Part shown: piece by piece, positions 1,024 to 54,953 of the stretch | Layout of the letters: each line of letters opens with the position of its first letter | Position numbering within the stretch: position 1 is the stretch's first letter | Assembly: GCA_000004985.1 (NCBI GenBank) | Contig: GG738901.1 | Strand: one strand, 5' to 3' | Length of the DNA stretch: 64,000 nt | Origin: Naegleria gruberi | Lineage: Eukaryota | Made by a program: the position numbers and the translations under genes | The notes under the pieces: model-generated | The model's database searches: none | What the model saw: the letters and a program-made list of their open reading frames with translations, nothing else | What the model was told of the DNA's origin: nothing

Positions 1024-1143
1024 TTGACATTCATTATGAAAATAGTCCATATTTATATAAGATACGTGCTAACTCGTTACCCATACATTTATTTACTTTT
1101 GTTTTAGTGATACAAGGAAAGACATGTTGTGATTAAAGTTGTT

Positions 1144-2415
1144 TTATTCTTGATTATGATCTTCTGTATGATGAGCAAGCATTGCCTCAATGAATTTATC
1201 TGGATTTCCATCACAAAGACATGAATTGAGATAGTATTCTGTTTGTTGTGCTGCACCTTTTGATCTTTCAAACATTTTAGCTTCAAAACTTGCAATTACT
1301 CCATTCCAATCTAATACTTCTGATTGAGTCTCACTTGCTATTCCATCCCTTCCATGAATTAAAAATTGAGCGAGGTCATGAGCATCTAGGAGGGCAAGAT
1401 TTGCACCTAATCCAGCAAATGGTGTCATTACGTGAGCAGCATCTCCAATAATTGTAACTCCTGGTTGAGTTTTCCAATCCCATTCAGGAGGAAGTGAATA
1501 AAGAGGTCTCTTGATGAATGAAAAGTCGTCATTACATTCAATAACTCTAATGAAATCCAATAGTGAATCATCCCAACCATTGAATAATTCTAATAATTGC
1601 TGCTTTACAACTTCAGGGCCCTTCTCAAAGTGAATAGTTTGCTCAACCAATTCTTTATCCATTCTGAGGCAATAGTAGAAACGAATATGATTTGAATTTC
1701 TCTGTGCTAACAGACCCTTGTTATTGTACAATGAAAAGAGACTTCCTTTTCCGGTCATTTCAATGACCTTTCTTGCCAAATCATCATTTCTATCTAATTG
1801 CAATTTTGATTCGATAAAGTAAACACCAGAATAGGTTGGTTTAGTTTGTGTGAAAGCGGATCTCACCTTTGACCAAGCTCCGTCACATCCAACCAATAAA
1901 TCAGTCACATGACTACTTCCATCCTTGAAGTTAATTTGGTATTGACCTTCAGAGGATTCAATCTTCTTAATACAGTCAACTGCCTTATTCCATTCTACAG
2001 TTCCAGGACTCAATGCATTGAGGAATAAATTTCTCAAATCCATTCTATCAATTTCCGGTTTGGAAAAGGCATCTTCATTCTCTGTTGTGGAATCTTGTGC
2101 AGAACCATCTTCGAAGAGAAGTTTCAAAGTGGTTGATTCGAGAATTTTAGTGGCCTCTCCTTCAACTCTTGACATTTTCAAAAACTCTTCATATAATCCA
2201 GCACCTTTAATGGCAATTTGTCCATAATCTGAGTGCATATCTAAAGAACCGCCCTGATCTCTTCCTAAAGTGATAGAATCTCTCTCAAAAACACTCACTT
2301 GAATGTTTGCTTGTTGGAGAAGGGTTGCAAGACAGAGTCCAGAAGGACCAGCACCGATAATTGTTACTTTCTTATTGAACATTGTTGTTTCTTTTTTTTG
2401 TTTGTTTGATTCCAT
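1144..2415 (-). CDS. FAD-dependent (group A flavin) monooxygenase
   Basis: The N-terminal Rossmann motif is KVTIIGAGPSGLCLATLL. LVGCDGAWSKVR is the conserved GD/DG FAD-binding motif of aromatic hydroxylases and TetX-like monooxygenases. A DAAH motif lies near the C-terminus. The ORF-track start at 2433 is TTG; in-frame ATGs sit at 2415 and 2382. Confidence 0.8.
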   Translation of the reverse strand: MESNKQKKETTMFNKKVTIIGAGPSGLCLATLLQQANIQVSVFERDSITLGRDQGGSLDMHSDYGQIAIKGAGLYEEFLKMSRVEGEATKILESTTLKLLFEDGSAQDSTTENEDAFSKPEIDRMDLRNLFLNALSPGTVEWNKAVDCIKKIESSEGQYQINFKDGSSHVTDLLVGCDGAWSKVRSAFTQTKPTYSGVYFIESKLQLDRNDDLARKVIEMTGKGSLFSLYNNKGLLAQRNSNHIRFYYCLRMDKELVEQTIHFEKGPEVVKQQLLELFNGWDDSLLDFIRVIECNDDFSFIKRPLYSLPPEWDWKTQPGVTIIGDAAHVMTPFAGLGANLALLDAHDLAQFLIHGRDGIASETQSEVLDWNGVIASFEAKMFERSKGAAQQTEYYLNSCLCDGNPDKFIEAMLAHHTEDHNQE

Positions 2416-2647
2416 CGATTGATGTGATTTCAACTATTTATATCAAAAAGCTCACAGTTATTGAAATGTGCGTTGGTTGATTGTCTAGTGTTGTCCACTC
2501 CGCTGTGTCGTCTATAAAATTCCATCATCTTGAAAGGTCCGCTAGTTGGGTTAGCAAAAATACCGCCCAGCCAATAGATTTCAAGAATTTGGCATTCAGT
2601 CCTGGGAGTGTCTTCATCACCATGGCATAGTTTGATGAAACAGTACA

Positions 2648-5600: not shown

Positions 5601-5650
5601 ATTTCTTCATCTGTGACACAGACAACTACCACATCACTCAGTGAAATCAT
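2648..5650 (-). CDS. DUF4116-type tandem-repeat protein (about 1000 aa)
   Basis: The ORF is uninterrupted and built of about 25 copies of a roughly 38-aa unit with consensus L(K/R)NDKEIVL.A(V/I)K.NG.AL.YAS.EL. The ORF-track start at 5665 is TTG; the first ATG is at 5650 (MISLSD...). Confidence 0.75.
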   Translation of the reverse strand: MISLSDVVVVCVTDEEIDMYGQIKSFSLMSQFQEAREKVIHDNDELYERIQTEMTSFGRIWHRRASPPLLESNRLILCKYLRKDGDYLSRIPDELKNDKTLVKIAVMSSGQSIQYASEKLRADREIVYLAACKHEHALKYVDPDLLKDRDFVMTLVSAKGTSVLEFASEELRNDDEIVKKALEICPYGFQHLPDQFRNDRNIVLETIKRYPNCFSFTCPELQNDKEIILEAIKRNNYQPVISSDLKNDVEFMRMAIKLNSELFQYAPECLKNDKQFIMEQIRTNSSTFKHISPELKDDRDIVLLTLYMREFDAMEMVGKNSKKDKEIVKTALIDYSAFSIMRTVSEELLLDKEFCLELLEIDQTVIDYVRNTELLNDKDLIMKLIESNPRSLYFAGEDLKNDRECVLKALHYGADILEYATSDELINDKYIVIKAISQYGGNINSVDEKFQNDRDFVLKAIRCGGYVSCIPIAFQNDREILEEAFNYFGHPEIPESMLNDRKLYLTQVKTYGFRLESSEMKRDRELVLEYSKNLPNYIPELYSDDREIVYECVKRDGKLIELASKRLRSDKALSFLAISNYNPVLVKLDWRMDMDFLEEVLRKHPSSLSFFRNEFSRDREFALLSAKYGVVLDHFSGDREIVLLASKNDGYCIFGCDVSFRSDFEFMFNVVTNNSHLLVLASEELKDDKELVLHAMKSNEEPTLDCLPHISDRLRNDYGFILEISKHIANLFWIPENLRNNKEIVLNAMSKNGMNLRYVSLDFRNDKEIVLVAVKQTGDAIKFASKPLQNDRQVVSAAIPTCTSFYFLSKELRMDRDFILENIEKNGQLLDAVPHFQSDKEIVIKAVMNKGNILNRASDDLKIDRQVVMAAVTNSGEALTALDEDLRNDKEIVLAATTSHPESLLHASYQLRTDREFILQAVKKNPKLFAHLEHKLQNDEEIATAAIELDVHQIAHASYRLKHNVKFLQKLNQQDNILIKHQQDLWYLIDMQGLKNSLKQ

Positions 5651-5774
5651 TTTTTTAATAAACAATTTAATAATATTAAAATCAAATTAATAATTGATTC
5701 TAGATTATGAAATTTCCAAATAATTAAGTGGACTGTTCGGAGTTAACTAGTATAATCTTTCCATTGAAAAAAAA

Positions 5775-11826: not shown

Positions 11827-11992
11827 TATTTTGTTATTAAGGGAAAATAAAAAGCTTTTCAAACCAAATACAAGTTCACGCCATCTTAATTGTAGATACC
11901 TGCTGCATCTAGGAGAGAAATACAACACGCGCTTTCTAACGACGCCAACGAAGTCGTATAAAAGCATACAAAACACACAAGAGAGAGAAAAA
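11827..11992. promoter_or_regulatory. Putative shared bidirectional promoter of the head-to-head DEG/ENaC-like gene pair
   Basis: This is the 166-bp interval between the divergent ATGs at 11826 (-) and 11993 (+). I could define no motif. Confidence 0.35.
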
Positions 11993-13042
11993 ATGAAAAT
12001 ATCTTCTCCTGAATCGACCAATAATCAAGTCTTTCCATCAGCGATGGAATTAAGGAAGGAAAATGAGCCAAAGGTTAATGATGAAGAAGAACATTCCGAT
12101 GATCATTCATCATCGGAGGGCTCTGTTGATTCATTCTTTGGTTCAGATCCATTGAAAAAACGTATAGGATATAGTATTAAGGACCTTATCACATTATTGG
12201 GTTGGATTGCATGTACAGGAGTATTCATTTGGTACTTTTACTCTTCAATAACACAAACTGTGGAGGCTTTTCAAAATCCTGCCACCACAGTTTCCTACAA
12301 AGCCAAGACGCCAATGTATTTCCCTGCAGTGACTTTGTGTAATTGGAATCCTGATGATGAGGAAGGAGGAAATAAGGGGAGTAAATTTGAAGCTGTTGGA
12401 TGTTATAGAACTGTAGTGTCACCTAATAATGTGAGCTATGTACCATGTGAATTTCCCTATTATGAGAAGACAATATTCTCTGGAGTGTACTATATGAATT
12501 GTATTGTTTTTAACAATGATACAAGTGCACCTGCTGTTGCTTCCCGTACTGGACATACTGGATCGTTGGTTTTTAAGGCAAGGTTTCCTTTTGATTTTTT
12601 TGGTGAGGATGATATGACTGGATTTAGAGCTGGAGCAACTGTTTCATTTCATGAAGTGGGATCAGTGCCCAATCTATCTGATGAAACGAATACAGCATCT
12701 GGAGGATTGGATAATACATTTACCATTCGAAAGATGGTGAACAAACGATTGGTTCCAAATCCAACCACTGAAATCTATTGGGATTCAGATTATTCTGCCA
12801 TTGACATGATTGAGAATAGAACTGATTACATCACTGTAACGGTGGCTTATAACTCATTGAATATTAGAGAGCAGACAGATGTATACACTGTCAATATACT
12901 CCAATTATTGGGTCAGCTTGCAGGTATGACCGGTACATTGTACGGTTTGGAAATTCTCAAAGTTTTGAGAGGATGTTTGTGGATTCCAAAATCAATCAAG
13001 AAGAAGACTGCAAAATATATTTGGGAAGAGTTCAATAGATAA
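11993..13042 (+). CDS. DEG/ENaC/ASIC-like channel B (intronless, 349 aa)
   Basis: TM1 is LLGWIACTGVFIWYFY. The post-TM1 motif is PMYFPAVTLCNWN (ASIC has FPAVTLCN). The palm-like segment is VSFHEVGSVP. The C-terminal stretch NILQLLGQLAGMTGTLYGLEILKVL aligns to the ASIC/ENaC pre-TM2/TM2 sequence [23 protein letters not shown]. Confidence 0.75.
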   Translation: MKISSPESTNNQVFPSAMELRKENEPKVNDEEEHSDDHSSSEGSVDSFFGSDPLKKRIGYSIKDLITLLGWIACTGVFIWYFYSSITQTVEAFQNPATTVSYKAKTPMYFPAVTLCNWNPDDEEGGNKGSKFEAVGCYRTVVSPNNVSYVPCEFPYYEKTIFSGVYYMNCIVFNNDTSAPAVASRTGHTGSLVFKARFPFDFFGEDDMTGFRAGATVSFHEVGSVPNLSDETNTASGGLDNTFTIRKMVNKRLVPNPTTEIYWDSDYSAIDMIENRTDYITVTVAYNSLNIREQTDVYTVNILQLLGQLAGMTGTLYGLEILKVLRGCLWIPKSIKKKTAKYIWEEFNR

Positions 13043-14558: not shown

Positions 14559-16201
14559 TTATTTGAGTTGTTTATTGATTTTGATGCATAATCTTTCTGC
14601 CATTGATAATGGTCGAGTTGTGGTAGAAGATGACAAGCTGCCACTTGAGAAACATGAAGAATATTGACACACATCACCAAAACTTCCAACACTGCACGAG
14701 CAAAAATCAAATCCTGTGCAAGATCCTTTTCCTCCACAAACTGTTGGGTTTGTTGCTTCAATTCCAAAACATGTTGGAGCTATTTCACATTTAGCTCCAC
14801 TGTAACTTGTTGGACATGAGCAATTTCCAGTCTCAGGAATGCAACTTCCTCCATTCAAACATGGGCTAACTGTACAGTTAGTATATTGACACTCACTGCC
14901 AAAAAAACCTTCTTGACAAGCACAAGTGTCAAAATTCACACAATTTCCTCTTTTGGAACAAACTTCACTTCCAATTTTTTCATAGCATTTGATTAAGCAT
15001 AGAGATCCATCCTGTTTCAGGGCATAGTTTGAGCTGTCACAAACAGGTGTCAATCTTCTTATTAAATTGGTAGATGCATCCGACAAGTAAATTTGTCCAG
15101 TCAATTCGTCCAATATAATTTGTTCAATACCTATTAATCTTGCTGATCGTGCATCAATATCTTCTCCATTTTCAATGATTCCGTCCCTATTTAAACTACC
15201 AGCAATTGTTTCAATTTGTAAGGTGGAACTGTCAACTCTTCTAATGGTTCTTCTTTGAGCAATAAATAAGTCACCACTCTTTTTTGAAACTGCAATTGAG
15301 ACAGGTTTGACAATATTAGCATCAAGTGCTGAGCCACCATCTCCAGAAGTCCATTGGCCTCCTACAACACCAGCATATCTTGTAATATTTACAAAATTTG
15401 CATTAATCTTTCTAATAACTGAATTTTGATAATCACAAACAAATAAATCTCCATTCGAATTGAAAGAAAGATCGTATGGAAGATTCAATTTAGCAATTGT
15501 TGGGTCTCCACCATCTCCTGAATAATCCCCAGCTCCTCCTTGTCCTGCAACTAGATCAATAGTTGCCATTTGTGTCATGTTAAATTTTCTAACTTGGTTG
15601 TAAAAGGTTGTAAAGTAAAAGGTATCACGATTATTTGGAGCAAATGCAAATGATCTAACTCCTTGATATTGGCTTTCAAAAATTGGAAGAGCAAAGTCAG
15701 AAACTGTTCTTGAACTCGTGTCCAATATTCTATGTTTGAAACTGTCATATATCAAAAATACATTTGGACCCAGGACAGTATCTCCTATTAAGGCAGTGGG
15801 ATGAGTGAAAGAGGCTGTCGAAGCAGCACCATTATCATAACCAATATCACCACTTCCTGCCATAGTTTGAACTAAATTGGTGTGCAAATCAATTTTTCGA
15901 ATTCGATAATTGAGACTATCCAAAAATATTAAACTAGTATCTTCTCCATTTCGTCTCAGAAACAAGTCTGTTGCGTTGTTAAAGACTGCCTCATTACCAT
16001 TCACATTATCTTTAAAATTTTCATCAATACCTGCAATGGTTATTACGTTATTTACACCATTAGAGTTCATTGTAATCTTTCTTAATCGCCTATTTCCAGA
16101 ATCGTTAACAATCATTGAGTATTCACTAGTGTTTGGATCATAGTAATATAGCATTGTACTTGGGTTGTTGAATTGTGCAACCTTGGCATCTCCTCCATCA
16201 C
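14559..16201 (-). CDS. Secreted NHL-repeat protein with C-terminal EGF-like Cys-rich repeats, exon 2
   Basis: The 64-nt intron 16202..16265 (GTAAGT...AAAAAG) joins ...GFSG|DGGDAKVAQFNNP in frame. NHL blades are followed by repeated C.C..G..G..C EGF-like modules. Confidence 0.8.
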
Positions 16202-20356: not shown

Positions 20357-20958
20357 AATGGGCTCTATAGACCACGAAATAGTTTTTTCGATAGTTTTGA
20401 TGAAGTGTTGGATTTAAGAATGGAACATGAATATCCAGATCTGTATATCTGAAGAAATTTATTTGGTGCAGTATTCTTTCCATAAAACCGCCAAACTCGA
20501 GTAAGCTGCTTCAAGTTGGTTTGGTCAATTAAGGTCGTCTAATAAGACACAAGCTTCTCATTTTGGTCTTGCACATACCTTCTAGTGTTCAAAAAAAATC
20601 ACATTGAAAAGTTGTTCCAAATCCACAGCCAAATTCCAATACCAACTCTATTGAAAGATGACTTTAGTAGAAATTAATCTCAACGGCAAGTCCAAAGTGA
20701 TTCTATTTCAATAAATTCCAAACAAATACTAACTTCACAGTATAATACTATTATCACTATGATCTGACATGGTGTTTCAAGTGGATTTTCGTTCATTACT
20801 GGTTACACAAACGTTGATACTCATTATTGGAGATTACCAAAGGCAAAGAATCCAATTACAATAGTCCATTTCATTCGAAATTGAATTTTCAACATTTTAA
20901 AAATGTATATTCCAATTCTTTGAATATTCAATTTCATTATTTCACACTCAAAAAAAAA

Positions 20959-22887
20959 ATGCATCAATTTCTTCCTCGTGATATGTGGCTCGAGGTTTTT
21001 TCCTTCCTAAAACCAACACTGATCATTTCACAATGTTCACCACTCTCACACGAATGGCACAATTTAATGGCATCTATAAATTTTGAACTTTCATTCAAGA
21101 TGAAGAATTCTGAAGAGGATGATTACATTGATGATGAGGAAACAGATGAGATTGAATTGTGTAATAAAGTAGGAAAGGAAGGCAGATATGCAGCACTTGA
21201 AAAGGCAATTGTTGGCATGTGTCAGTGCAGTGCTTTGAAAAGTGTCAAAAAATTGAATTTTTCACAAGTTTCACTAAATGATGAGCTTGTTAGAAAGATT
21301 GCCCAATGTGAAAATTTTGCCAATTTGCAATCGTTGAATCTTTACAATAGTGAGATTAGTGTTGCGAGCTTTAAGGCAATTCTGAAAAGTACTTTTGCAA
21401 ATTCTTTGAAAAAACTCAAATTTGAGGGGAAGAATATGGAAAAATCAAATTGTGAAGAAATTGAAAAGTATTTGGAAGAAAATAGTGGTCAACTGAGTAA
21501 TCTTGGTGTGTATTATTTTGAAATGGGAGAAATTATGAAAACTACTCATCATGAATATGCATCGGAACTTTTCAAAAAGGCAGTAGATCACAAGTATTAC
21601 AAAGCCATGTTTACAATTGGTGTCATGTATGATATTGGACCACTTCAATTTCAAGGTGGAGGAGAGGAGGCAATGGAATGGTATTTGAAAGCTCTGAATA
21701 ATGGAATAGCCAAGGCAGCTGTTAATCTTGGAGTTGTTTACAGAGAGGGCATTGTTGTAAAGAAGGATATTTCGAAAACAATCGAATATTATTCAATGGC
21801 TGACAGAATGGGAGGAACTACGGGAATGTTCTATCTTTCCTTATTATATTTCGATGGAGAAGGGGTAGAAGAAGATATCAATAGAGCAATGAAACTACTC
21901 AAGAAGGCAGGATCACTTGGAGACAAAGATGCATTTTGTAGATTAGGCGAAATCTATTTGGAAGGTCATCTCTTTGAGGTTAATAAGGAGAAAGCTTTCT
22001 ACTACTTTAATAAGGCTGCGAAATTAGGAAGTGCCAAAGCAATGCATCATTTGGGTGTCATGTATAGAACAGGTGAGTTTGTAGAGCAAGATAATGAAAA
22101 ATCTTTCAGATACTATCTGAAATCTGCCAAATTAGGACATGCAAGTGCTCAATTGTGTGTTGCAGATTGTTATGAGAATGATAAGGATGACATGGATGAG
22201 GCATTCAAATGGTACTTGAAATCTGCTCTAAATGGTGATACTAGAGCTGCTCTCTATGCAGGTGCCTTATTGGCGAATGGTAAAAAGGTGGAAAGAAATC
22301 TACCACTTGCACTTATGCTCTGTGATAGAGCAGCAAGAAGTGGAAATGTTCATGCCCTCTGTAATGTTGGACGAATATACGAATTTGGAGATGAAACAAT
22401 TCCAGTTGACATACCCAAAGCTATTCAATATTATGAAAATGCAGCAAGTATGGATAGTACAAGGGCTATGTTAAGTCTTGGTGTCCTCCTTTCAGGTAAT
22501 GATATCTACAGAGATATGGAGAAAGCCAAGCAATATTTGTTAAGAGGAAGTGAACTTGGTGATCTGTATTGTAAATTTGCTTTGGCTGAATTATTCTATC
22601 TACTTGAAGATTATGAAAATGCCTTGTTGTGGATTAATGAGGCGATTGAAGAGGGTGATCTCGAGGCCATCTGTACATTAGGAAAGTGGTATAAGGAAGG
22701 TAAAGCTGTGCCATTGGATTATTCGAAAGCAATAGAATTGTTTGAGAGGGCTTCTCTAAGCCTCTGTGATAATGCTGTAGAAGAACTTGCCGAAATGTAT
22801 AGAAATGGTTTGGGAGTGGAAAAGAATGAGGAAAAGGCTAATGAGCTAATGCAATCCATTGGTTGCACAGAACAAGCAGAAGAATAG
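20959..22887 (+). CDS. F-box-like / Sel1-repeat (SLR) protein
   Basis: The ATG is at 20959 (MHQFLPRDMWLEVFSFLK..., F-box-like). At least 10 Sel1 repeats follow, with consensus A..LG..Y..G.GV..D...A..WY.KAA. Confidence 0.75.
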   Translation: MHQFLPRDMWLEVFSFLKPTLIISQCSPLSHEWHNLMASINFELSFKMKNSEEDDYIDDEETDEIELCNKVGKEGRYAALEKAIVGMCQCSALKSVKKLNFSQVSLNDELVRKIAQCENFANLQSLNLYNSEISVASFKAILKSTFANSLKKLKFEGKNMEKSNCEEIEKYLEENSGQLSNLGVYYFEMGEIMKTTHHEYASELFKKAVDHKYYKAMFTIGVMYDIGPLQFQGGGEEAMEWYLKALNNGIAKAAVNLGVVYREGIVVKKDISKTIEYYSMADRMGGTTGMFYLSLLYFDGEGVEEDINRAMKLLKKAGSLGDKDAFCRLGEIYLEGHLFEVNKEKAFYYFNKAAKLGSAKAMHHLGVMYRTGEFVEQDNEKSFRYYLKSAKLGHASAQLCVADCYENDKDDMDEAFKWYLKSALNGDTRAALYAGALLANGKKVERNLPLALMLCDRAARSGNVHALCNVGRIYEFGDETIPVDIPKAIQYYENAASMDSTRAMLSLGVLLSGNDIYRDMEKAKQYLLRGSELGDLYCKFALAELFYLLEDYENALLWINEAIEEGDLEAICTLGKWYKEGKAVPLDYSKAIELFERASLSLCDNAVEELAEMYRNGLGVEKNEEKANELMQSIGCTEQAEE

Positions 22888-22923: not shown

Positions 22924-25110
22924 TTATTTACTACTATACTTTCTGAAACAAATTTCATCCTTGACCTCTGTTGAAAGTCTTGCCAGTGTTTCTCTATTGT
23001 TGAAAAGGTTTTGAATGTTTTCCACTCCAAAGTTGATTAGTCTTTCATAAACTGAATCATTGTAATTTCCTAATTGTTCAAATAATGTGCAAAAATTATC
23101 AATTGTAATTTGTAAATTATTCAAATAGTAATCTATCATTTCCTTTACGTCATAAAGTGCAAAACATTTAAAAAGTGGAAGAGCTTGATTGATTGGAACA
23201 CTGGAAACATCGAAAACTCCATAACAATATTTCAGAACTATCTCATGTAGGTCTTCCGAGAATTCCTCAGTATCAATAACATAAATATCATCCTTCAAGT
23301 CTTGATATTCAAAACCACTATTGAATAGTGCTTCATAGTATGGGCTGTTGGATGCAAGAATTGTTTTGTGTGCATAGAATTCTTTTGTGCCCGTCTTGAT
23401 GGTAATATCGCTTGTTGCTTTGTCGTTGAAGAGTGTTTCAACTGACTTAGTGGTCTTATCTGATGTTTCATCATCATTGATAGTAATTGGATTTATGGTA
23501 GTGGATAGCTTTTTGGCAATCGGCACAAGATGTTTTTGAAATATTGGAATGTCAACTGCGCTTGCCGATTGTTGCATTGTTTTTGCAGCGTGGCCAATAC
23601 AGTAGTCCAGTAATTGGTCTAGCAATGGATTATCAATGAACAAAGGTGCACTGTCTTTAGCTTGTGTAACTTTTTCCAAATTTTTGGAAACTAGTTGAGC
23701 ACAAGATTGACTAAATGATTTTGTAAATTCATCTACCAATTTTCTCTTCAGAGAAGTAAATCCTTTTGACATTCCAAGAATGGCCAAGATATCAACCAAT
23801 TCATACTTGTCAAACCATTCACTATCGTGATATTGTTGGTACATGATTGAATCAATTAAATGTTGAATGATTTCCATTTGAGTGGAAGTTAAGTGTTTCA
23901 ATAAAAAGGAATTGAAAACAATAGATTTAGAGAAATGAGGAGCCAAAATATTAAATACACTCTTACAGCATATCAAGTTAGTTCCATCAACAAGGTCTCT
24001 ATCATACTTTTTCAATTTGAAAGAAAGTGGTTTGAGCAGAGTTGCATGATAGGATCCAACAATTTTCCTAATTCTATTATTTCCAAAATCGCTGAAATAC
24101 ACATCTCCATTCTTTGCATGAACTGCTATTTGACATGGAGAAGAAATCTTTGCATTTATAGCAAGGCCACCATCTCCGTCAAATCCCTTTTCATTGATTC
24201 CACAAACTGTAGTGATTCTTCCATCAATTGGTGAAACTGTACAAATTCTGTTATTGCTTCGATCTGTCACATAGATAATTTGACCTCTAGTGCAAAATGA
24301 AACATCATATGGATAATTCAATTGTGCATCAATACCATCTGAATATCCTGCTTTTCCTGTTCCTGCCAATGTTGTAATGATTCCACTTTTACAATTAACC
24401 TTTCTAACTCTATGATTATTCGAATCCGCAATATAAACATCACCAGTAGTTGGATTAAAATCGAGCCCACTAGGGCCATTAAGTTGAGCATTTGTTGCAA
24501 ATCCACCTTCCCCACAAAATCCAGCAGTTCCATTTCCAGCAAATGTTGAAATAATTCCAGACGAATTAGAAATTCTTCTTATTTTGTTATTAACAAAATC
24601 AATAATATAAATATCAAAAGTTATTGGATGAATCTTGACACACTGTGGAAAATACAATTGAGCAAATAATGCCAACCCACCATCACCTGACGTACCTCCA
24701 GTATTATTACCTGCAACTGTACTTATGGTACCATAGGTTAATGAAATCTTTCTAATTCTATGATTGGAATAATCAGCAATATACAGCTCCTCATTCTTTG
24801 GATGAATTGAAACAGATAATGGACAATTTAATTGAGCATGTAAAGCCAGCCCTCCATCACCTGAATAACCTGCAACTCCAGTACCAGCAATAGTAGTGAT
24901 CTTATTATCCAATGCAGACACTTTACGAATACAATGATTTCTATAATCTGCAATATACACATCATTACTATAGGGATTAACAGCTACACCATATGGAGAG
25001 GAAAGTTTAGCCTCTATTGCTAAACCATTGTCTCCATAGAAACCTTTAATGCCATTACCAGCAATAGTCCAAATTGTTTGTTCCATTCCCTTTGGTGATT
25101 GACGCATCAT
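22924..25110 (-). CDS. NHL-repeat (6-blade) protein with C-terminal BTB/POZ domain
   Basis: The ATG is at 25110. Repeats have the form YGVAVNPYSNDVYIADYRNHCIRKV, typical of NHL. The C-terminal segment DITIKTGTKEFYAHKTILASNSPYYEALF is BTB. Confidence 0.75.
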   Translation of the reverse strand: MMRQSPKGMEQTIWTIAGNGIKGFYGDNGLAIEAKLSSPYGVAVNPYSNDVYIADYRNHCIRKVSALDNKITTIAGTGVAGYSGDGGLALHAQLNCPLSVSIHPKNEELYIADYSNHRIRKISLTYGTISTVAGNNTGGTSGDGGLALFAQLYFPQCVKIHPITFDIYIIDFVNNKIRRISNSSGIISTFAGNGTAGFCGEGGFATNAQLNGPSGLDFNPTTGDVYIADSNNHRVRKVNCKSGIITTLAGTGKAGYSDGIDAQLNYPYDVSFCTRGQIIYVTDRSNNRICTVSPIDGRITTVCGINEKGFDGDGGLAINAKISSPCQIAVHAKNGDVYFSDFGNNRIRKIVGSYHATLLKPLSFKLKKYDRDLVDGTNLICCKSVFNILAPHFSKSIVFNSFLLKHLTSTQMEIIQHLIDSIMYQQYHDSEWFDKYELVDILAILGMSKGFTSLKRKLVDEFTKSFSQSCAQLVSKNLEKVTQAKDSAPLFIDNPLLDQLLDYCIGHAAKTMQQSASAVDIPIFQKHLVPIAKKLSTTINPITINDDETSDKTTKSVETLFNDKATSDITIKTGTKEFYAHKTILASNSPYYEALFNSGFEYQDLKDDIYVIDTEEFSEDLHEIVLKYCYGVFDVSSVPINQALPLFKCFALYDVKEMIDYYLNNLQITIDNFCTLFEQLGNYNDSVYERLINFGVENIQNLFNNRETLARLSTEVKDEICFRKYSSK

Positions 25111-34383: not shown

Positions 34384-34464
34384 GCGGTCTTGACCGAGTG
34401 GTTAAGGTGATTGACTAGAAATCAATTGGGGCGACCCGCACAGGTTCGAATCCTGTAGACCGCG
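34384..34464 (+). tRNA. tRNA-Ser (anticodon AGA), type II
   Basis: The acceptor stem is GCGGTCT/AGACCGC with discriminator G. The anticodon stem is ATTGA/TCAAT and the loop CTAGAAA gives anticodon AGA. A long variable arm is present. The T-arm is CAGGTTCGAATCCTG. Confidence 0.85.
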
Positions 34465-34907: not shown

Positions 34908-36380
34908 TTATTCAATGTACGGACAGCCACAACTCAATGATTTACCATCTTGTGAAATGTAAGGTGTACAACCAGTGCAAACATACAAGTAAGAAGTTGT
35001 GTATCTTGTTTGAACTGATTGACCAAATGCCAATTGAATACATTCATCCTTTCCTGTTCTTGATTTGAGAGATACTCCACCAAATGTTTCTAAAACATAA
35101 GAAGTCCATTTACAAACATCCCAGTTATATTGATCACAATCTCCTCTGAGGAAATTGAAATAGAAGGATCCATCCAAATTCTTGTAAATCTTAGGTCTCA
35201 ATCCAATAATGAAAGTTGGATCATCATATGGGAAATTGACTTGGAAAACCATTCTTACAAAGGCATCGATTTCAACAGAGTTTCCATTAGCAATACTCGT
35301 TCTAGAACCAAAATTTTCAATGATAGAATCCTTTCGATCTTGTTTAAAAACAGTGACTGGTTGAAGTTTGGAAGCATCTGCAGCCATCTTTGCATTTAGG
35401 TCATTAATCATTTGATTCACTTGGTCTGCCTTTGATTGGATATAATTATTGTAAATAATCTTCATATTAGCTTGTTTTGGACCATCAGGGAATGCTCTCC
35501 AAATTGGAATAGTTTCGAATTTAACAGGGACTGGATTGGAAGCAAAAGTTGACACTCTTTCTCTTTTTGATGAAATTTGAGGATTTCCACCAACAATGTC
35601 CAATTGAGCTACCTTATGATATCTAATATAACCATTAGGAAGACTGGAGGTATCAGTTTGATCATCAATTGATAATTGTAATTCTAAATCCAAGTAACTC
35701 AACATGCTTGGATCATTGTAACATGACTTGACAGAGGTTGTCAAATCAATAACACCTCCATAAACAATATTTGTGGCAATAGAATCACCAAATGATGTAA
35801 TTACTTGCATGTACAAGTCAGTATCCATTTCATAAGGAAGTAAATCAATAATCATTTGAAATTCATCAGTGACTTGAATTGTAGACAATGAAACAGTATG
35901 TGTGAAATATTGCTTTTGAATATCAGCAATAAACAAATTACCCTCAAAGAATCTTGAAAAGATTAGATCAGTAGCTGCAGATCCATGACTATAAAGTCCA
36001 TTAAAAACTGTCTGACCATCCCTTGGAAACAACATGGAAAAGTACTCTTGAGCGCTTTTCATTGTTTTTACCACAGATTCCTCACCTGATGTTGGAACAC
36101 TGGAGGGAGATTGAAGAATTTGAGGACGAATGGTGTGATCCTCTCTGCTATAACCAACTCCGGCAATAATAGGTAAATGATCATCCATGAGGTTTCTTCT
36201 ACTACTTGTTGTAGGACAATTCAATCCCTTCATTGTTATCAAACATTTGCTTTCCATAACAGTGATTTGTTCCTTCATTTGTGACATGATATTCGGAAGG
36301 GCCCCATCTACCAACACTCCTAACAATAATAAGGAACCAATCACCAATAGGATGAATGCCAATAGGAAGGAAATCTTCAT
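34908..36380 (-). CDS. Secreted hypothetical protein (signal peptide, Cys-rich C-terminus)
   Basis: The ATG is at 36380. The signal peptide is MKISFLLAFILLVIGSLLLLGVLVDG. The ORF is continuous at 490 aa. I considered a MACPF-like assignment but could not support it. Confidence 0.55.
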   Translation of the reverse strand: MKISFLLAFILLVIGSLLLLGVLVDGALPNIMSQMKEQITVMESKCLITMKGLNCPTTSSRRNLMDDHLPIIAGVGYSREDHTIRPQILQSPSSVPTSGEESVVKTMKSAQEYFSMLFPRDGQTVFNGLYSHGSAATDLIFSRFFEGNLFIADIQKQYFTHTVSLSTIQVTDEFQMIIDLLPYEMDTDLYMQVITSFGDSIATNIVYGGVIDLTTSVKSCYNDPSMLSYLDLELQLSIDDQTDTSSLPNGYIRYHKVAQLDIVGGNPQISSKRERVSTFASNPVPVKFETIPIWRAFPDGPKQANMKIIYNNYIQSKADQVNQMINDLNAKMAADASKLQPVTVFKQDRKDSIIENFGSRTSIANGNSVEIDAFVRMVFQVNFPYDDPTFIIGLRPKIYKNLDGSFYFNFLRGDCDQYNWDVCKWTSYVLETFGGVSLKSRTGKDECIQLAFGQSVQTRYTTSYLYVCTGCTPYISQDGKSLSCGCPYIE

Positions 36381-47559: not shown

Positions 47560-47606
47560 CTGAATAATAAATTAAATATTTAAATATATTATCATGCAAA
47601 ACTTAC

Positions 47607-48285
47607 TCGTCCTTTTCTTGATTTTGATTCAATTTAAAAACGTGAACGGTTCCCTTGTCACTTGAAACACAAACCATTGAAGAATCTGAAGAAAATGAAA
47701 TACTATAAATACGAGCTGCTGTTGAACCTCTTCTCAAGGTATGCAATAGTTCACATCCTGGAATTGAGAAAATTCTAATCACAGTACCCTTTCCTGATGC
47801 TGTTGCAAGCATGGTACCATCTTGATTGAATTGTATTATTGATACGTCACTCTTATGGGCTTTGATAAAGTTGACTTGTTTAGGGTTGATGGCATCGTAG
47901 AGAATAACATCTCCGGACTCTGTTGGTGATGGATATGCCATATAACTAACGTCATTCTTTCCTCCACTGACTCCTGTTGGTGTAGATGAAGGTATGCTAG
48001 AAAGTACACACAATCCTAAATTGTTTTTTGTTTCAATTGTCCTGAGAATTTTCATAGATGAAATATCAAAGATATGAATCTTATCTTGAAGTACAACTAC
48101 AAGTCTTCTCTTTGATACTTTAACATTTAAAATTGTACTAGTAAAGTTTAGTTCACAAATTGCCTTGTTCTCACTCGAGTTGAAAAGTTGAAGTCTTCTA
48201 GGACTTAAACTTGCTTGATGTCCGGCACCAACAAGAGCTAATAAACTAGAGCTATATAACATTTGTACAAGACTCATTCCTCCAG
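47607..48285 (-). CDS. WIPI/Atg18-family PROPPIN, exon 2 (contains LRRG phosphoinositide-binding motif)
   Basis: CELLHTLRRGSTAARIYSISFS corresponds to the FRRG/LRRG motif of PROPPINs. An acceptor TAG precedes 48285. Confidence 0.8.
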
Positions 48286-48466
48286 CTACATGAATAGTAA
48301 ATTAATAATTAATATATTAGAATATTGGAATGATGATGTGATATATATCATAGTCCATTATTATCATCGTCATCACGATGAGTATGCAAATAATAATAAT
48401 AATACCATCAAATATTAATAATAATAATATGATTAATTAATATCAAAGGAATAATAAAACACGTAC

Positions 48467-48614
48467 GTTGGGAATAGCATTTCTTCAACGGATCCAATGT
48501 AAAGATTTTATATGAACAATCGGTACCAACACTCACACAACTGCAATCTTGATTAAAAGCAGCAAACAAAATCTTCTCCGATCCTCCAGAAATATGATCT
48601 GTTGATGTACTCAT
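48467..48614 (-). CDS. WIPI/Atg18-family PROPPIN, exon 1
   Basis: The ATG is at 48614; the ORF-track start at 48626 is TTG. The donor is C|GTACGT. Intron 1, 48286..48466, is about 181 nt. Confidence 0.75.
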
Positions 48615-49290
48615 ATTTTCGATCAAAATTTAAATTATATATATAAATGAATACTTCTATTAATTACTCTATCAAGCTGTACAAATTCTCCAACAAAAAA
48701 GAAGCACCTCTTAGAGTTGTGTTTTTTAAAATTGTTCAAAGATTGGAACGTTCAAAGTAGAAGCGAAAACCAAGCTTGTGCAAGACTTTGAAATTTTTTA
48801 AAGATTTTGTGAGGAAATGTGATGATTTTGGACGACAAGCGAAATAAAAAGAACAAGAGTTAGTGTGTTGACTGGAAACGTGAGGAAGCCGAAATTGTGT
48901 TAAGGTTCATGAGTCTTAATATTGCTCAATAATTGGTCAGCTTGATGATGATTTGAAATAATAATTTTAAAAAATTGAAATATTTATTATAATAATTGTA
49001 AATTGTGTTGATTATTATAAAGCTTATTAACCATTCGGAGATGAGAATGGAGAAATGAAGAAGATTAACACTTTCGGATGAAATAATTGTATCGTGATGG
49101 GTAAGAAAAGATTTTTTGGTAAGGCAAATAATTGTTTCTTTTCAAATATTGATTTTGTCGCATCATTAAAAACAAAAAGCCTTCTCATCATCAACTCATG
49201 ACAGTTGACCTTTTCTAAATCTTTGGATATTCCTCTACCCTAACATTATCTTTTTTGCTTTTATCAATACTACTTCGGAGGAGAGAGAAG

Positions 49291-50273
49291 ATGAATTTTC
49301 ATATCGTTCTCTTACTCTTGTTGGTCATCATTAATTTGATGATATTTTCATCATCGGCTCTTGCAACGCTTTCCCTTGGACCAGAAGAAGCAAATGAAAA
49401 AGCAACAAGAACATCATTCATTCCAAATAATAATAATAATAATAACAACTTTGCTAGAGAACAACAGCTGAAACAACGTAGAAGGTTTCTTATTAACAAT
49501 GATCCAATTTATGGGAAATTAAATTCATATTTCCATGAGGAGGAAACAAGAGCCTTGGCGACTACTAGATATTCAACAACAACAACTTCAGTGAATGGAG
49601 AGTTCTTTTCGAATATTAGAGAAGAGCAAGAACAGTCGTCTGGTGTTCTCTCATCATCAGCAACACGGAATGTTCATAAAGAAAATAATGTAAATAATCA
49701 AACAAGAGGTTATGATAGAAGATTCGCTAGGGAACAATTGATGGTCGAAGAAGTATCTGCTACTGTATCATTATATGATTCGGCTGCTGTGACTGCTAAA
49801 GCAAGCATTCCTACAGTTTATCTATTCGAAAGTTTGGATGAGACAAGTGAAAATAATACATGCACAAGTGTGAATTCTCCTTGTAAGAATTGGACCATGG
49901 CTGTGAATAAGGTATTCTCTTTGTGTGAAGCCTCTGTTAGCAAATTGCCCTCTAAAACTGTTAACAGTTGTGAGGCAAAAATTGAATTATTAAGTGGAGT
50001 GAATAGTTGTGAAGGAGTTATTCCACAACTTTTATTATATCAAATCAAAATTTCAATTTATAGTAGTACAGCTCAATATAAGATGATATGTGGAGGAAAT
50101 ACCTTGTCACTTTTTGGAAATTTATTGACTGGTGTTTCAGATGCCTCAAATGTTTCACTCTCATTCAATAATATTGGCTTGACAAATGTGGTTTTTATAT
50201 TTTCTTCATTTGGAGAAGTTTCTTTCAATGGAACTAAACTAGATGGTGTGTTTTTCAATACCACTATCATTTC
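49291..50273 (+). CDS. Receptor-like protein kinase, exon 1 (signal peptide, N-terminal ectodomain)
   Basis: The ATG is at 49291 (MNFHIVLLLLLVIINLMIFSSSALA). The donor GTAAGT is at 50274. The 62-nt intron ends CCTTAG at 50335. Confidence 0.75.
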
Positions 50274-50335
50274 GTAAGTTTTCTTTCAGTATATATGAAT
50301 TGCAACTTATTTCTTGATAATTTAAATAACCTTAG

Positions 50336-52292
50336 AAGGTTCACCCTCAGCAAATCTTACGCTTCAGATTTGTACTTGGCTCAATTTTTTACCAAATTCT
50401 CACCAATTTCAACAGATTTTCTAACACTACAACAATCAATTTTGGAATATTGCTATTTTTCTGTAACATCAAGGGCAATAGATATAAAATCAAATACCAT
50501 GACCAATATTCGGATGACTTTTGATGCTCTTAGTAGAGTAGTAATAAGAGATAGCTCATTTTCTGATAGTACAGTACTCATTTCATCGAGTGATTTGTTG
50601 ATTGGTACAGGTTTTGCAGAATTTTCATTCTATATCGTAAATATTAGCTTTTCGAGATCGAGCTTAATTGTCACCTATTATAGAAATGGAAGAGCTCTTG
50701 TCTCTTCAAAACTTTATGTGATTGGATGCAATTTTTCTGGAAAAGCGCCATATTATCAAGTATCAGTAGTTGACTTTACAACAATAACTATTGATAATTG
50801 TATATTTAATGGACTCAATACCTATTCAGAATATAGTGCCCTCTCAATCAAGTCATACTATTCTAAAACTGAGGCAGAAATAACCAGTACAACTTTTAGC
50901 AATTATTATTCAAAAGCCTCAGGTGCAGCTCTTAATATTTATGGTGTTGAAATTGGATACATAGCCGATTGTATATTCAAGAATAACACAGCCCTCGATA
51001 ATGGTAAGTATGAAATTGTAATTAATAATATTAATTGTGCTTTTAATATAGGCGGAGCACTAACAATTGACAGAGTTGGATTAGCAACTGTTCAATACTG
51101 TAAATTTGTGGAAAACAAGTTTGAGAGTAAGAGAGAAAGTCAATTCTTTTCATATGGTGGAGGTGCATTATATGTTTACAAGTCATTTATTGAATTAACC
51201 AAGAATTTATTCACTAAAAATTCAGCTAATGGACTAGGTGGTGCTATCATTGTAAATACAGCCTGTAGTGTCAAGACATCAAATGATGTGTTTGATGATA
51301 ATTATTCACTCTATGGAGGAGCTATTGCTTACACAGATTATCAATTGAACGATTGTAGTAATGTAGTTTTCTTTACTTATAATTCTACTTTCATTAATAA
51401 TAAGGCAAAGTATTTTGGAGGATTCTTCTTTGGGAGAAAGTTACCAGTCATGTACTTTGATACTTTTACCAGCTTTAGACTCAATTCAGCACAATTGAGC
51501 GGAGGAGGAATTTATTATTTGGAAAAACCTGCTGCTAAGAAGGTTATTAATGGAGATCCTGAAAAGCTTGGTTTTGGTAATACAGGCATGTACACTAGCT
51601 CAAATATTGAATCATTCCCAACTCGAATGGAGGTATACTCCAAGAGTAGCATGGAATCTCAGAGTGGCGTTCTAACTAATATGCACTTGTTGCTATTGGA
51701 TGAAAACAACCAAACAACTCCATACTTCCCTGGAATGATGGACTTGGAGTTACAAGCTGATGGACTATCTTTTATTGTGACAAAGTTTACTTTTTCCAAC
51801 ACTAGTAGAACTCTCAAGTTGGACTATACTTTTTATTCCAAAACCGCTGAATTTCCATTCCAAAGCAATCTACTATTAATTTTGAGATTGAAAGAATTTG
51901 ATATTGCTCAATATTTTGAGTTCACTGCGACAACATGTAATATTGGTTATTATGTCATTAGAGATGAGGACAATGAAACATTGTACAAGTGTAGCCTTAC
52001 TCTTACGATCACCCTGTCAGCAACTATTGCTGGAATCTTATTGTTATTTATTGGATTTTTAGTAGGATTCTTCTTTTTAAGAATGATTAGAAGAATTACT
52101 ACAATAGTAATGGATTACAAGAAGAAGGAGCTAGCTGAAAAGGAGTTGACTGAAAGATTGATGAGCTATCAAGTCTTATTCGAACATGGAGACGTAGAAT
52201 TGGATGGCTATAAGCAGTGGATGATTCCAGTGAAAGATTTGGAGATTATTTCCAAGATTGGAGAAGGAGCTTACGGAACAGTTTACAAGGCA
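50336..52292 (+). CDS. Receptor-like protein kinase, exon 2 (beta-helix-like repeat ectodomain, TM helix, kinase subdomain I)
   Basis: Repeated GGA(L/I).. and N..A..GGAI motifs suggest parallel beta-helix or polymorphic-membrane-protein-like repeats. The TM helix is TIAGILLLFIGFLVGFFFL. IGEGAYGTVYKA is the Gly-rich loop. Confidence 0.75.
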
Positions 52293-52342
52293 GTATGTTA
52301 TTTTTTATTCTTTCAATGATTATTTAATATTATTTATAATAG

Positions 52343-52659
52343 TTGTGGAAGACCAATGTAGAAGTGGCCATAAAATCCATCAAAGTTGATGAAGATTCAA
52401 TCTCTACTTTTGAACATGAAGCATCTTTATTGAGTAGTTGTAGACACTTGAATATTGTTACATTTTATGGATGTACAATAACTGGAGAAACTAATTATCT
52501 GGTTGAGGAATATATGAGTGGAGGTGGATTAGACAAGATGCTATATCGTGTTGGTAAAGGGCTAATTGCAATGAGTCTCAAACAAAAACTAAGAATTTTG
52601 ATTGATGTGTCTTGTGGAATGAGCTATCTCAATGAACTCAAACCTCCAATTATTCACAG
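52343..52659 (+). CDS. Receptor-like protein kinase, exon 3 (VAIK, hinge, up to HR)
   Basis: It contains VEVAIKSIK and LVEEYMSGGGL and ends in IIHR plus a GTACGT donor. Confidence 0.8.
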
Positions 52660-52704
52660 GTACGTTCAACATTTCAATATTTTAATTTAACAAATTCTAA
52701 TCAG

Positions 52705-52838
52705 AGATTTGAAACCTGAGAATATCCTTCTTACAAGGGACATGGTAGCTAAGGTTTCTGATTTTGGCTTATCTACCATTTCAAATCCTCAGAGAACAAT
52801 GACATGCCAAATTGGCAGTTTATTCTATATGGCTCCAG
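52705..52838 (+). CDS. Receptor-like protein kinase, exon 4 (catalytic loop HRDLKPEN, DFG)
   Basis: It encodes (R)DLKPENILLTRDMVAKVSDFGLS...YMAP. Both flanking introns are 45-47 nt. Confidence 0.8.
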
Positions 52839-52885
52839 GTAAGTTTATTCTTTGGATTATTCATCATTACTGAACTCAAAACCAG

Positions 52886-53346
52886 AACTTTTCAACAGCA
52901 ATTATTACAATGAGAAGTGTGATGTCTACTCCTTCTCAATTGTCATGTGGGAATTATTCTTTGGAACTCGTTATTCATCCTTTGGAGGTGATGCCAATGA
53001 TCGATTCAAATTTTTACTCACAAGAGAACAAATTTTGGAACTTTCCACACTCGCAACCAGTTCAATTGCCTTTGTGTTGAAGAAGGTTGCTGAGGGAACA
53101 AGACTTCCACTCCCAAACAGTACATCTAGTCACCTCAAATGGATTAGAGCTTTCATGCCTGAACATTCCAGTAATGATGAACATTGTAAAGTTATTGTAA
53201 AGGTGGTAGAGAAGTATTTTACTCTGATGGTAGAATGTTGGGATAACGATCACAGCAAGCGTCCTGGATTCAGAGATATTATGTATAGATTGAAGGAAAT
53301 GGTGGATTTGCTTTATTTTGATGAGTGTACAGTGAGAACTTTGTAA
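52886..53346 (+). CDS. Receptor-like protein kinase, exon 5 (APE, C-lobe)
   Basis: It starts (AP)ELFNS..CDVYSFSIVMWELFFG and ends at a stop. Confidence 0.8.
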
Positions 53347-53591
53347 ATTTTGATCATCATCATTAGCCATTGTTGTGGATTATTATACACTGTGAAATCC
53401 AGTTTATCGTGTTATCTCTTGGTTGCTGTTTAGTGATTGGGTTGCTTTCTGTACATTATTCGTTTTCCAAATATGGAAATCAGATAACAGTAACATAGAT
53501 TGTGGTCGACTGGACGCTCGCATTCTTTTGCTTCAATACTCCTCAAAACGCACCGATTATCGTTAACATCACCTCAAAAAAAGTTCGAATA

Positions 53592-54749
53592 ATGAGTGCA
53601 CCATCAACTACCAATAATTTCCTTGCAAATGTTTTGCAAACGCTTTCGAATAACTTTTTTGCAGACCTCAATAATACCAGCATCAGCACTCCAACCCTGA
53701 ATATCCTTTCCAATGAAACTGTACCAAATACAAGTCCTCCAACACCAACTCTTCATCCTCTTTCATACCCTTCTCTGGTAGCAAGTTTCAATAATTTTGA
53801 TAATTCTTCCATGTCTATGCGATCAGAGAGAGGAAACATGACTATTCGAAGAATGGTGAGTCCTCCAACTACAGATCCAGCACAAAACAATACCATTACA
53901 CCTCCACCAACAGTTGCCATACCAATTGTTCCTCCAGTGTTGGCTGGAGGTGCTCATCCACCTCCTGCTCACTTGTTGGGTGGAGCAGCTGCTAATGCTC
54001 CATTCACACCAGATAGTTTGCCTTGCATTCAATTTACCACTAATCTTTCGAATAGTTATTCAACCATTGTATCGACTAGACATAGCCGAACAATTGAGAC
54101 TCACTCCTGTGGAGCTTCTACTCAACCAAACACCTCGGTTGAATACATTTTTTATACGAAACACACTCATCCTCAATACACTTATTTTGAGGTAAAGCTG
54201 GCAGATAAACTCTTTTCTAATGCGCAGTCATCTGCTCCTGAAGTAGCTCTTGGTTTTGCACCTTTTGGATACAAGGGAATGGTCGGTTGGATGAAAAACT
54301 CAATTGGTTTCCATGTTGATAATGGACGAGTTTATGACGAGAGAGATGCAACAAACGGTATTGCAGATCGTGTATATTTAGGAAGTGTCAGTAGAGGAGA
54401 TGTCATTGGATGTTTGCTCAATCACAAGAATGGAGAATTTTTGGTTGTAAAGAATGGTCAAGAATTGCACAATCTTTCACATGGAACTGTCTTTAAGCAT
54501 GACCACTTTAAACAATCTCATCAATTTTTGCCAACCATTTCATGTTCAGATATTCACTTGGAAATGGAGGTGAATTTGGGATTGGACATGGTACGAAAAC
54601 CATTCCTCTATCCAAGAGTTGTTCACTTTAGACAATTGGACAGATTATTGGCCATGGTCATTTCAGAAGATCAACAAGTAACTTGTTCGAGTTTTAATTT
54701 CACAGATTTGAAAATCACCACACAAACCAATATTGTGCAATTTGATTAA
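53592..54749 (+). CDS. SPRY (B30.2-like) domain protein with Pro/Thr-rich N-terminal region
   Basis: YFEVKLADK...ALGFAPFGYKGMVGWMKNSIGFHVDNGRVYD...VIGCLLNHKNGEFLVVKNG is a SPRY fold resembling RanBP9/SSH4-type. The first ATG is at 53592. Confidence 0.65.
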   Translation: MSAPSTTNNFLANVLQTLSNNFFADLNNTSISTPTLNILSNETVPNTSPPTPTLHPLSYPSLVASFNNFDNSSMSMRSERGNMTIRRMVSPPTTDPAQNNTITPPPTVAIPIVPPVLAGGAHPPPAHLLGGAAANAPFTPDSLPCIQFTTNLSNSYSTIVSTRHSRTIETHSCGASTQPNTSVEYIFYTKHTHPQYTYFEVKLADKLFSNAQSSAPEVALGFAPFGYKGMVGWMKNSIGFHVDNGRVYDERDATNGIADRVYLGSVSRGDVIGCLLNHKNGEFLVVKNGQELHNLSHGTVFKHDHFKQSHQFLPTISCSDIHLEMEVNLGLDMVRKPFLYPRVVHFRQLDRLLAMVISEDQQVTCSSFNFTDLKITTQTNIVQFD

Positions 54750-54880: not shown

Positions 54881-54953
54881 CGCCCCACGTGGGGCTCGAA
54901 CCCACGACCGTTGGATTAAAAGTCCAACGCTCTACCGACTGAGCTAGCGGGGC
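54881..54953 (-). tRNA. tRNA-Lys (anticodon UUU)
   Basis: The reverse complement reads GCCCCGCTAGCTCAGTCGGTAGAGCGTTGGACTTTTAATCCAACGGTCGTGGGTTCGAGCCCCACGTGGGGCG. The anticodon loop CTTTTAA gives UUU. The cloverleaf is canonical. Confidence 0.85.

Follow-up and report, generated by a model that had tools for sequence, protein, structure and literature searches.

Introduction

Single-pass transmembrane (TM) Ser/Thr/Tyr kinases are reported to be the main TM kinases of most protists, with about 40% of the non-kinase regions of protist TM kinases lacking any Pfam annotation and the annotated domains being largely lineage-specific, while fungi have very few TM kinases, 54 in 18 species (PMC10463195). 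Heterolobosea are not in the sampling of this survey, and its main text mentions no ectodomain of the beta-helix or polymorphic membrane protein (PMP) type. In this work, we describe a gene at positions 49291-53346 (+) of a 64,000-nucleotide stretch of the Naegleria gruberi genome (contig GG738901.1; hereinafter, the window is this whole stretch), which appears to encode a receptor-like kinase with precisely such an ectodomain. Like the single-pass receptor kinases covered by the survey (plant RLK/Pelle, Entamoeba TMKs, oomycete leucine-rich-repeat TMKs; PMC10463195), the predicted protein starts with a signal peptide and has a lineage-specific ectodomain, which one TM helix connects to a cytoplasmic kinase of the Ser/Thr/Tyr superfamily. 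It differs from them in that its kinase is an MLK/Raf-like member of the TKL group and not of RLK/Pelle, and its ectodomain is a parallel beta-helix built of PMP repeats.

Each half of the protein has described relatives of its own. The kinase shares the Ser/Thr-type catalytic loop HRDLK..N with the plant Raf-like kinase CTR1 and with the animal MLK-family MAP3Ks (TAK1, ZAK, TNNI3K, B-Raf), but all of these are cytosolic and have neither an ectodomain, nor a TM helix, nor the two inserts found in the C-lobe of the Naegleria enzyme. The ectodomain, in turn, shares the GGA[ILV] and FxxN coils, their period of 26-30 amino acids (aa) and the right-handed beta-helix with the Chlamydia Pmps (PF02415) and with adhesin beta-helices such as Vag8, PfbA, TibA and Ag43. 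In contrast to these, the Naegleria protein has no autotransporter barrel, bears a eukaryotic TM anchor, is coupled to a kinase and contains only about seven consensus coils.

Results

A predicted single six-exon gene

The preliminary description of this DNA, made from the sequence letters without database searches, discussed the gene in a fungal setting. This framing had to be abandoned: six open reading frames (ORFs) of the window are identical to RefSeq proteins encoded on a 309,005-nt scaffold of N. gruberi NEG-M, a member of Heterolobosea (XP_002671961, XP_002671967, XP_002671968, XP_002671971, XP_002671974 and XP_002672042), so that the rarity of receptor kinases in fungi is irrelevant here. 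The other genes of the window (see below) have no fungal look either. The gene itself proved to be delimited as had been proposed, with an ATG at 49291 and a TAA at 53344-53346 enclosing a single spliced ORF of 3804 nt that codes for 1267 aa. In the ORF listing it is represented by four successive plus-strand open frames (49255-50277, 50295-52319, 52343-52690 and 52709-52873/52852-53346), between which lie short AT-rich gaps with GT..AG ends.

We assign to the gene six exons separated by five introns of 62, 48, 50, 45 and 47 nt, all on the plus strand. The introns start with GTAAGT, GTATGT or GTACGT, end in AG and have a GC content of 12-30% vs. 33-38% in the exons. Exon 1 (49291-50273) codes for aa 1-327 plus 2 nt of the following codon and comprises the signal peptide, a low-complexity region rich in N, T, E and Q, the N-cap NNTCTSVNSPCKNW and the first coils of the beta-helix. 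It is followed by intron 1 (50274-50335, GTAAGT..TTAG, phase 2, 23% GC) and by exon 2 (50336-51003), where degenerate beta-helix coils give way to the first coils of the PMP type. Intron 2 (51004-51051, GTAAGT..ATAG, 17% GC) precedes exon 3 (51052-52292), which lies within the ORF 50295-52319 and encodes everything from the remaining PMP coils through the stalk to the TM helix, together with the juxtamembrane helix and the Gly-loop of the kinase (GEGAYGTVYKA). Beyond intron 3 (52293-52342, GTATGT..ATAG, phase 0, 12% GC), exon 4 (52343-52659) encodes the kinase N-lobe up to the HR of the catalytic loop. Intron 4 (52660-52704, GTACGT..TCAG, phase 2) interrupts the codon for the Arg of HRD (AG|A), just as the preliminary description had it for its 45-nt intron. 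Exon 5 (52705-52838) contains DLKPEN and the DFG activation loop up to YMAP and, after intron 5 (52839-52885, GTAAGT..CCAG, phase 1), exon 6 (52886-53346) adds the C-lobe with its two inserts, the CWDNDHSKRPGF motif and the stop codon.

The earlier count of five exons and four introns was correct as to the start, the stop and the HRD intron, but missed intron 2, which can be read through because its 48 nt are in frame and free of stop codons. Its removal restores the register of the PMP repeats (NNTALDNGGALTI) and eliminates a 16-aa gap in the alignment with a homologue from Willaertia magna (KAL9657575.1): the spliced junction ALDNGGALTI stands against ISELGGGAISI of Willaertia with no gap. 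The intron 3 junction (YKA|LWKTN) is likewise continuous, as are all five exon junctions in this alignment.

The Willaertia protein (ABK040_001002, annotated as a hypothetical protein of 1145 aa) was found by the ectodomain search and kinase screen described below. It is collinear with our model over aa 188-1254, i.e., over about 1070 residues, with 31% identity (E 5e-113) rising to about 43% over the TM-plus-kinase region. The two proteins share the N-cap, the GGA/FxxN coils, a Cys pair in the stalk, the TM helix, a juxtamembrane AE(K/R)ELT helix and both C-lobe inserts. The Willaertia protein differs in having a shorter N-terminal region, three introns at other positions and no Chlam_PMP call by Pfam at E <= 1e-3. 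The same ectodomain-kinase fusion is already annotated in Willaertia, and the architecture is conserved at least between the two genera.

Population data were provided by a metagenome contig (ENA ERZ929261, run ERR1078381, PRJEB11402), whose 5.5 kb (1-5517) are 99.35% identical to positions 49030-54560 of the window, which indicates that the environmental sample contains a Naegleria strain very close to NEG-M. Of the 17 exon substitutions between the two sequences, 13 fall at codon position 3; ten are synonymous and seven nonsynonymous. All three exon indels are 3 nt long. Over the whole coding sequence, omega is about 0.19 and the deficit of nonsynonymous changes is significant (P = 8.5e-4), so that, judging from this comparison, purifying selection acts on the gene. 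The low-complexity region at aa 25 to about 185 accounts for all of the indels and for three of the seven replacements.

The preliminary description had named a split of the ectodomain and the kinase into separate genes as one finding that would speak against it. The sequence does not suggest such a split: a single ORF and a single uninterrupted exon encode the PMP coils and the TM helix as well as the Gly-loop, hence it is improbable that their fusion is an artefact of exon joining. The same arrangement bears on the idea that the locus yields two products, an ectodomain-only membrane protein and a cytosolic kinase transcribed from an internal start. It is true that an intron separates the kinase exons 4-6 from exon 3, and that prokaryotic gene callers cut the gene into separate ORFs on the metagenome contig. 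Nevertheless, the Gly-loop and strands beta1-beta2 (GEGAYGTVYKA) belong to exon 3, where they follow the TM helix, a kinase begun in exon 4 would have no ATP-binding loop, and Willaertia has the fusion as well, which makes two products barely credible. Taken together, homology, population data and the internal logic of the exons are three independent lines on which the predicted six-exon, single-gene model for 49291-53346 rests.

Comparison with the public gene model

In RefSeq and UniProt, the locus is represented by XP_002671972.1 (EFC39228.1, D2VVF6_NAEGR), a "SPRY domain-containing protein" of 1136 aa which falls into the same 90% cluster as a metagenome ORF (P0056). This model maps to 49291-49881, 50418-52016, 52706-52837 and 53664-54746 of the window. 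It loses about 160 aa of the ectodomain and keeps intron 2; neither the TM helix nor the juxtamembrane segment is included, and of the kinase, whose N-lobe is left out, only a fragment of 44 aa remains (DLKPEN...YMAP); finally, the C-lobe is skipped entirely along with the stop codon, as is the intergenic gap, and the model splices into the next gene. The latter (53592-54749, +) is a separate SPRY gene with its own ATG at 53592, encoding a protein of about 385 aa with a Pfam SPRY domain, and is no part of the receptor kinase.

If the public annotation were correct, the product would be secreted and consist of a beta-helix joined to a SPRY domain, and the TM and kinase stretches would be introns. 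The model stands in both databases, and each of its exons is taken from the open frames. However, its "introns" of about 536, 689 and 826 nt are ten times longer than the introns of our model, all five of which are short and AT-rich, and they hold long open frames that encode a TM helix as well as the whole of a conserved kinase. In addition, the 44-aa kinase fragment cannot fold alone, the model crosses a stop codon, an intergenic gap and the own ATG of the SPRY gene, and the Willaertia homologue has the receptor-kinase architecture without any SPRY domain. We consider the public version highly improbable; as far as the sequence comparison goes, XP_002671972.1 is a chimera of parts of the receptor-kinase gene and the SPRY gene. 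In architecture, though not in exon count, the preliminary description is more accurate than the public model. In the reference genome, XP_002671972.1 (D2VVF6) should be replaced by the 1267-aa receptor kinase and a separate SPRY protein.

The beta-helix ectodomain

The predicted order of domains is a signal peptide, about 160 aa of low complexity, a Cys cap, a right-handed parallel beta-helix of about 16 coils, a stalk of about 160 aa, the TM helix, a juxtamembrane helix and an RD-type TKL kinase. Exactly two hydrophobic segments, aa 5-24 and aa 870-893, were detected by hydropathy in the 1267-aa protein. The first is the hydrophobic core of the predicted signal peptide (49291-49365, +), which satisfies the -3/-1 rule at an A-L-A|T cleavage site (...SSALA|T), in agreement with the cleavable signal peptide proposed before. 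The ensuing low-complexity region, with its runs of N, T and E/Q, extends from aa 25 to about aa 185. The Cys-containing N-cap motif NNTCTSVNSPCKNW is kept in Willaertia as NNCTFINYPCKNF and is also found in an N. gruberi paralogue (P0059, considered below).

The preliminary description had spoken of about 600 aa of beta-helix- or PMP-like repeats. The nature of the repeats was recognized correctly, but not their extent, as the right-handed parallel beta-helix occupies about 420 aa (aa ~286-706; 50146-51518, +, spanning introns 1 and 2). According to the sequence pattern, the final seven or so of its roughly 16 coils are of the Chlamydia PMP type (aa 524-706; 50922-51518, +): Pfam Chlam_PMP (PF02415) matches with 30.4 bits against a gathering cutoff of 20.6 (E 3.2e-7), the GGA-type motifs lie at aa 524, 551, 587, 613, 639, 673 and 701 with a period of 26-30 aa, and five of these seven coils also have FxxN (aa 542, 604, 631, 664 and 692). 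In an alignment of 20 PMP segments, the columns of G, F and N vary little or not at all. An AlphaFold2 model made with a 20-row alignment shows a three-stranded beta-helix, with moderate confidence for aa ~286-416 and a predicted local confidence score (pLDDT) mostly above 85 for aa ~466-706. When the modelled ectodomain was submitted to Foldseek, the matches were of the same fold class, none of them significant.

No autotransporter domain was detected by Pfam, the C-terminus being formed by the TM helix and the kinase. Without an autotransporter beta-barrel, the protein shares the repeat and the fold with the Pmps but is not a Pmp autotransporter itself.

Stalk, TM helix and kinase

The beta-helix is followed by a stalk or membrane-proximal region (aa 707-869; 51519-52007, +) that is collinear with that of Willaertia, including the conserved Cys846 and Cys864 (C-x-IG ... 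Y-x-C-S-x-TLTI). The single TM helix that had been suggested, and the lack of which would likewise have spoken against the preliminary description, is clearly seen at aa 870-893 (52008-52079, +; ITLSATIAGILLLFIGFLVGFFFL) as the sole internal hydrophobic segment, with a Kyte-Doolittle maximum of 2.66. Directly C-terminal of it is RMIRR, a positive flank typical of the cytoplasmic side, which suggests a type I topology with the kinase inside.

The kinase domain (aa 948-1247; 52242-53283, +, spanning introns 3-5) is complete, as had been stated, with GEGAYG, VAIK, FEHEA (the alphaC Glu), HRDLKPEN, DFG, APE and SKRPGF (the subdomain XI Arg) all intact and likewise conserved in Willaertia. Pfam PK_Tyr_Ser-Thr (PF07714) matches with 179.9 bits (cutoff 23.1, E 7.6e-53), above PF00069 (161.7 bits, cutoff 31.7). 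Among solved structures in the PDB, CTR1 ranks first, followed by TAK1, ZAK, TNNI3K and B-Raf (E 6e-38 to 1e-28 for the closest domains); tyrosine kinases are interspersed a little further down. This ranking and the Pfam scores assign the predicted kinase to the TKL group, in line with the earlier suggestion, and its catalytic loop makes it RD-type. Two inserts in the C-lobe, one of which bears a conserved Trp and sits between G.RP.IP and YF.L...CW, are common to Willaertia, the N. gruberi paralogue P0059 and two metagenome ORFs (P0058 and P0062), and partly to a kinase from Acrasis.

These data bear on another interpretation of the protein, namely a membrane-anchored adhesin or enzyme in which the kinase is an inactive scaffold (pseudokinase) or the beta-helix is a polysaccharide lyase or epimerase and not a sensor. 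However, every catalytic element from the Gly-loop, the VAIK Lys and the alphaC Glu through HRD, its Asn, DFG and APE to the subdomain XI Arg is intact and shared with Willaertia, which is hardly expected of a pseudokinase. Purifying selection acts across the coding sequence (omega 0.19) and the kinase domain shows no nonsynonymous change relative to the metagenome strain (D1255A lies in the C-terminal tail), although these counts are too small for a test of the kinase alone. As for an enzymatic beta-helix, Pfam detected no lyase or epimerase catalytic signature in the ectodomain, Chlam_PMP being the only match. We therefore regard an adhesin or enzyme of this kind as unlikely.

Relatives of the two halves

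Heterolobosean TKL kinases are the best named relatives of the kinase domain. They include the N. gruberi paralogue P0059 and Acrasis kona AKO1_015812 (P0060); together with the metagenome ORFs P0058 and P0062, they show 34-39% identity. Most of them have the conserved-Trp insert, and P0060 and P0062 also possess one TM helix upstream of the kinase, but their ectodomains are short and devoid of PMP coils; P0058 lies at a contig end. As TM helices occur in P0060 and P0062 without PMP coils, this comparison suggests a heterolobosean kinase subfamily joined to varied ectodomains. P0059, annotated as a "predicted protein" of 519 aa, begins with a signal peptide and a similar C..PC cap and then passes straight to the juxtamembrane segment. 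Since it has no TM helix, it may be another broken model in which the ectodomain and TM exons were skipped, that is, it looks like a second receptor-kinase gene truncated in a similar way. No paralogue was found within the 64-kb window.

An exhaustive HMMER search with the ectodomain was carried out at E <= 1e-3, and the best 149 of the 1281 proteins matched were screened for a kinase. Nearly all of the 1281 matched the PMP zone only, and a kinase was present in two of the best 149, the Willaertia homologue and a bacterial protein (P0211). Another search with the ectodomain gave just two matches, a weak PMP protein and the metagenome ORF P0056, and a search with the full-length protein gave generic kinases only among the matches listed. 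A metagenome scan with the alignment of the window and Willaertia sequences and two peptide patterns revealed no further member of the family, the 64 kinases retrieved being generic TKL enzymes of about 30% identity.

The bacterial protein P0211 (1630 aa, on a clearly bacterial contig) likewise contains a protein kinase and Chlam_PMP repeats in one polypeptide. Its order is reversed, however, with an N-terminal Hanks kinase and C-terminal PMP repeats, and no TM segment was detected in it; two FHA-kinase genes adjoin its gene. As the P0211 kinase is only distantly related to that of Naegleria (55 bits), the fusion arose independently. Taken by itself, a PMP-type beta-helix is no rarity among eukaryotic membrane proteins: in P0327, for example, it is joined to a multi-pass domain that forms the C-terminal part and contains seven hydrophobic segments. 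Besides the receptor kinase, the fusions of PMP-type beta-helices include P0327/P0201 (ENA and NCBI contigs) and the bacterial P0211 (L069).

The preliminary description had considered a beta-helix joined to a kinase unusual. As far as tested, this agrees with the kinase screen and with the literature, where no description of a PMP or beta-helix receptor kinase was found; nor did the literature on the Naegleria kinome, DUF4116 or PRJEB11402 provide anything specific. Given the survey (PMC10463195, its main text), the ectodomain search and the negative literature search, the receptor-like kinase as a kind is already known, while its variant with a PMP beta-helix ectodomain and its occurrence in Discoba appear to be undescribed. 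In principle, such an architecture is unsurprising, because protists freely recombine ectodomains with kinases.

Discussion

The data allow us to conclude, with a probability of roughly 85%, that the locus is one six-exon N. gruberi gene for a type I single-pass receptor-like kinase, whose ectodomain we propose to be ligand-binding. Several points weigh against this conclusion. The evidence for the splice junctions consists of consensus signals, homology and selection, and intron 2, being in frame, could stay in some transcripts. The intron positions in Willaertia differ from those of the N. gruberi gene, with the possible exception of intron 1, and lend the model no support. The signal peptide and the TM helix were called by hydropathy and the -3/-1 rule only, the AlphaFold2 confidence is low for the N-terminal 285 aa or so and for the stalk, and we infer the ligand, the oligomerisation and the kinase activity of the receptor alike.

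By analogy with the described relatives of its two halves, the protein is most likely a receptor Ser/Thr kinase activated on sensing a glycan or a cell surface as its ligand. The beta-helix would face outward and bind an extended or particulate ligand, most plausibly a polysaccharide or the surface of another cell or of prey, a proposal made because pectin-lyase-fold and PMP-type domains generally bind ligands of this type. PMP proteins and many proteins of the pectin-lyase fold bind or process polysaccharides or act as adhesins. Binding would cluster the receptors and bring the kinase domains together on the cytoplasmic side, where they could trans-phosphorylate their activation loops. This step is suggested by the Ser/Thr residues in the loop and by the RD type of the enzyme, as RD kinases require activation-loop phosphorylation. 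The kinase might then act as a TKL enzyme in the manner of a MAP3K and set off a kinase cascade, MAP3K being the role in which MLK/Raf-like TKLs work. Naegleria exists in amoeba, flagellate and cyst forms and preys on bacteria. In view of this form switching and bacterial hunting, a surface beta-helix on a MAP3K-like kinase is a candidate sensor of such cues.

A broader view, which we put forward as a tentative and rather doubtful possibility, is that Naegleria and Willaertia share a family of receptor kinases with a PMP beta-helix on an MLK/Raf-like kinase, broken apart in the N. gruberi annotation, and that this family is an independent invention of Discoba, perhaps for sensing bacterial prey or glycans. 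We do not favour an acquisition of the PMP module by gene transfer from bacterial (chlamydial) symbionts or prey. Such a transfer is unsupported, because the best-scoring PMP array among those traced lies on a contig that looks eukaryotic, possibly animal, and because P0211 is an unrelated bacterial fusion.

If the conclusion of one receptor-kinase gene is right, a receptor-type kinase is added to the signalling repertoire of Naegleria, one that would probably escape a survey by domains if this relied on the current gene models, and at least one paralogue (P0059) looks similarly truncated. The pectin-lyase/PMP beta-helix also extends the list of ectodomain folds taken up by receptor kinases. 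We believe these results to be useful both for the signalling biology of Naegleria and for the curation of its genome.

Other features of the window

Directly upstream of the receptor-kinase gene, on the opposite strand, lies a PROPPIN (Atg18/WIPI-like) gene (47603-48626, -), apparently consisting of at least two exons (ORFs 47603-48277 and 48408-48626). Among the other protein genes, an ORF at 11831-13042 (+) matches Pfam ASC, the amiloride-sensitive sodium channel family (ENaC/degenerin), with E 1.5e-10; outside this case, the family is mostly found in animals. A 1005-aa ORF at 2648-5665 (-) consists almost wholly of DUF4116 repeats (19 matched stretches, E 1.4e-184), and the 490-aa ORF at 34908-36380 (-), which is XP_002672042.1, gives a weak match to MACPF (perforin-like) and is possibly a pore-forming protein. 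Two NHL-repeat proteins are encoded at 14559-16154 (-) and 22924-25110 (-), one with teneurin-type EGF domains and the other with a C-terminal BTB/POZ domain, and a Sel1-repeat protein is encoded at 20827-22887 (+). Dispersed among the protein genes are tRNA genes for Leu(CAA), Ser(AGA) and Lys(UUU), at 944-1023 (-), 34384-34464 (+) and 54881-54953 (-).

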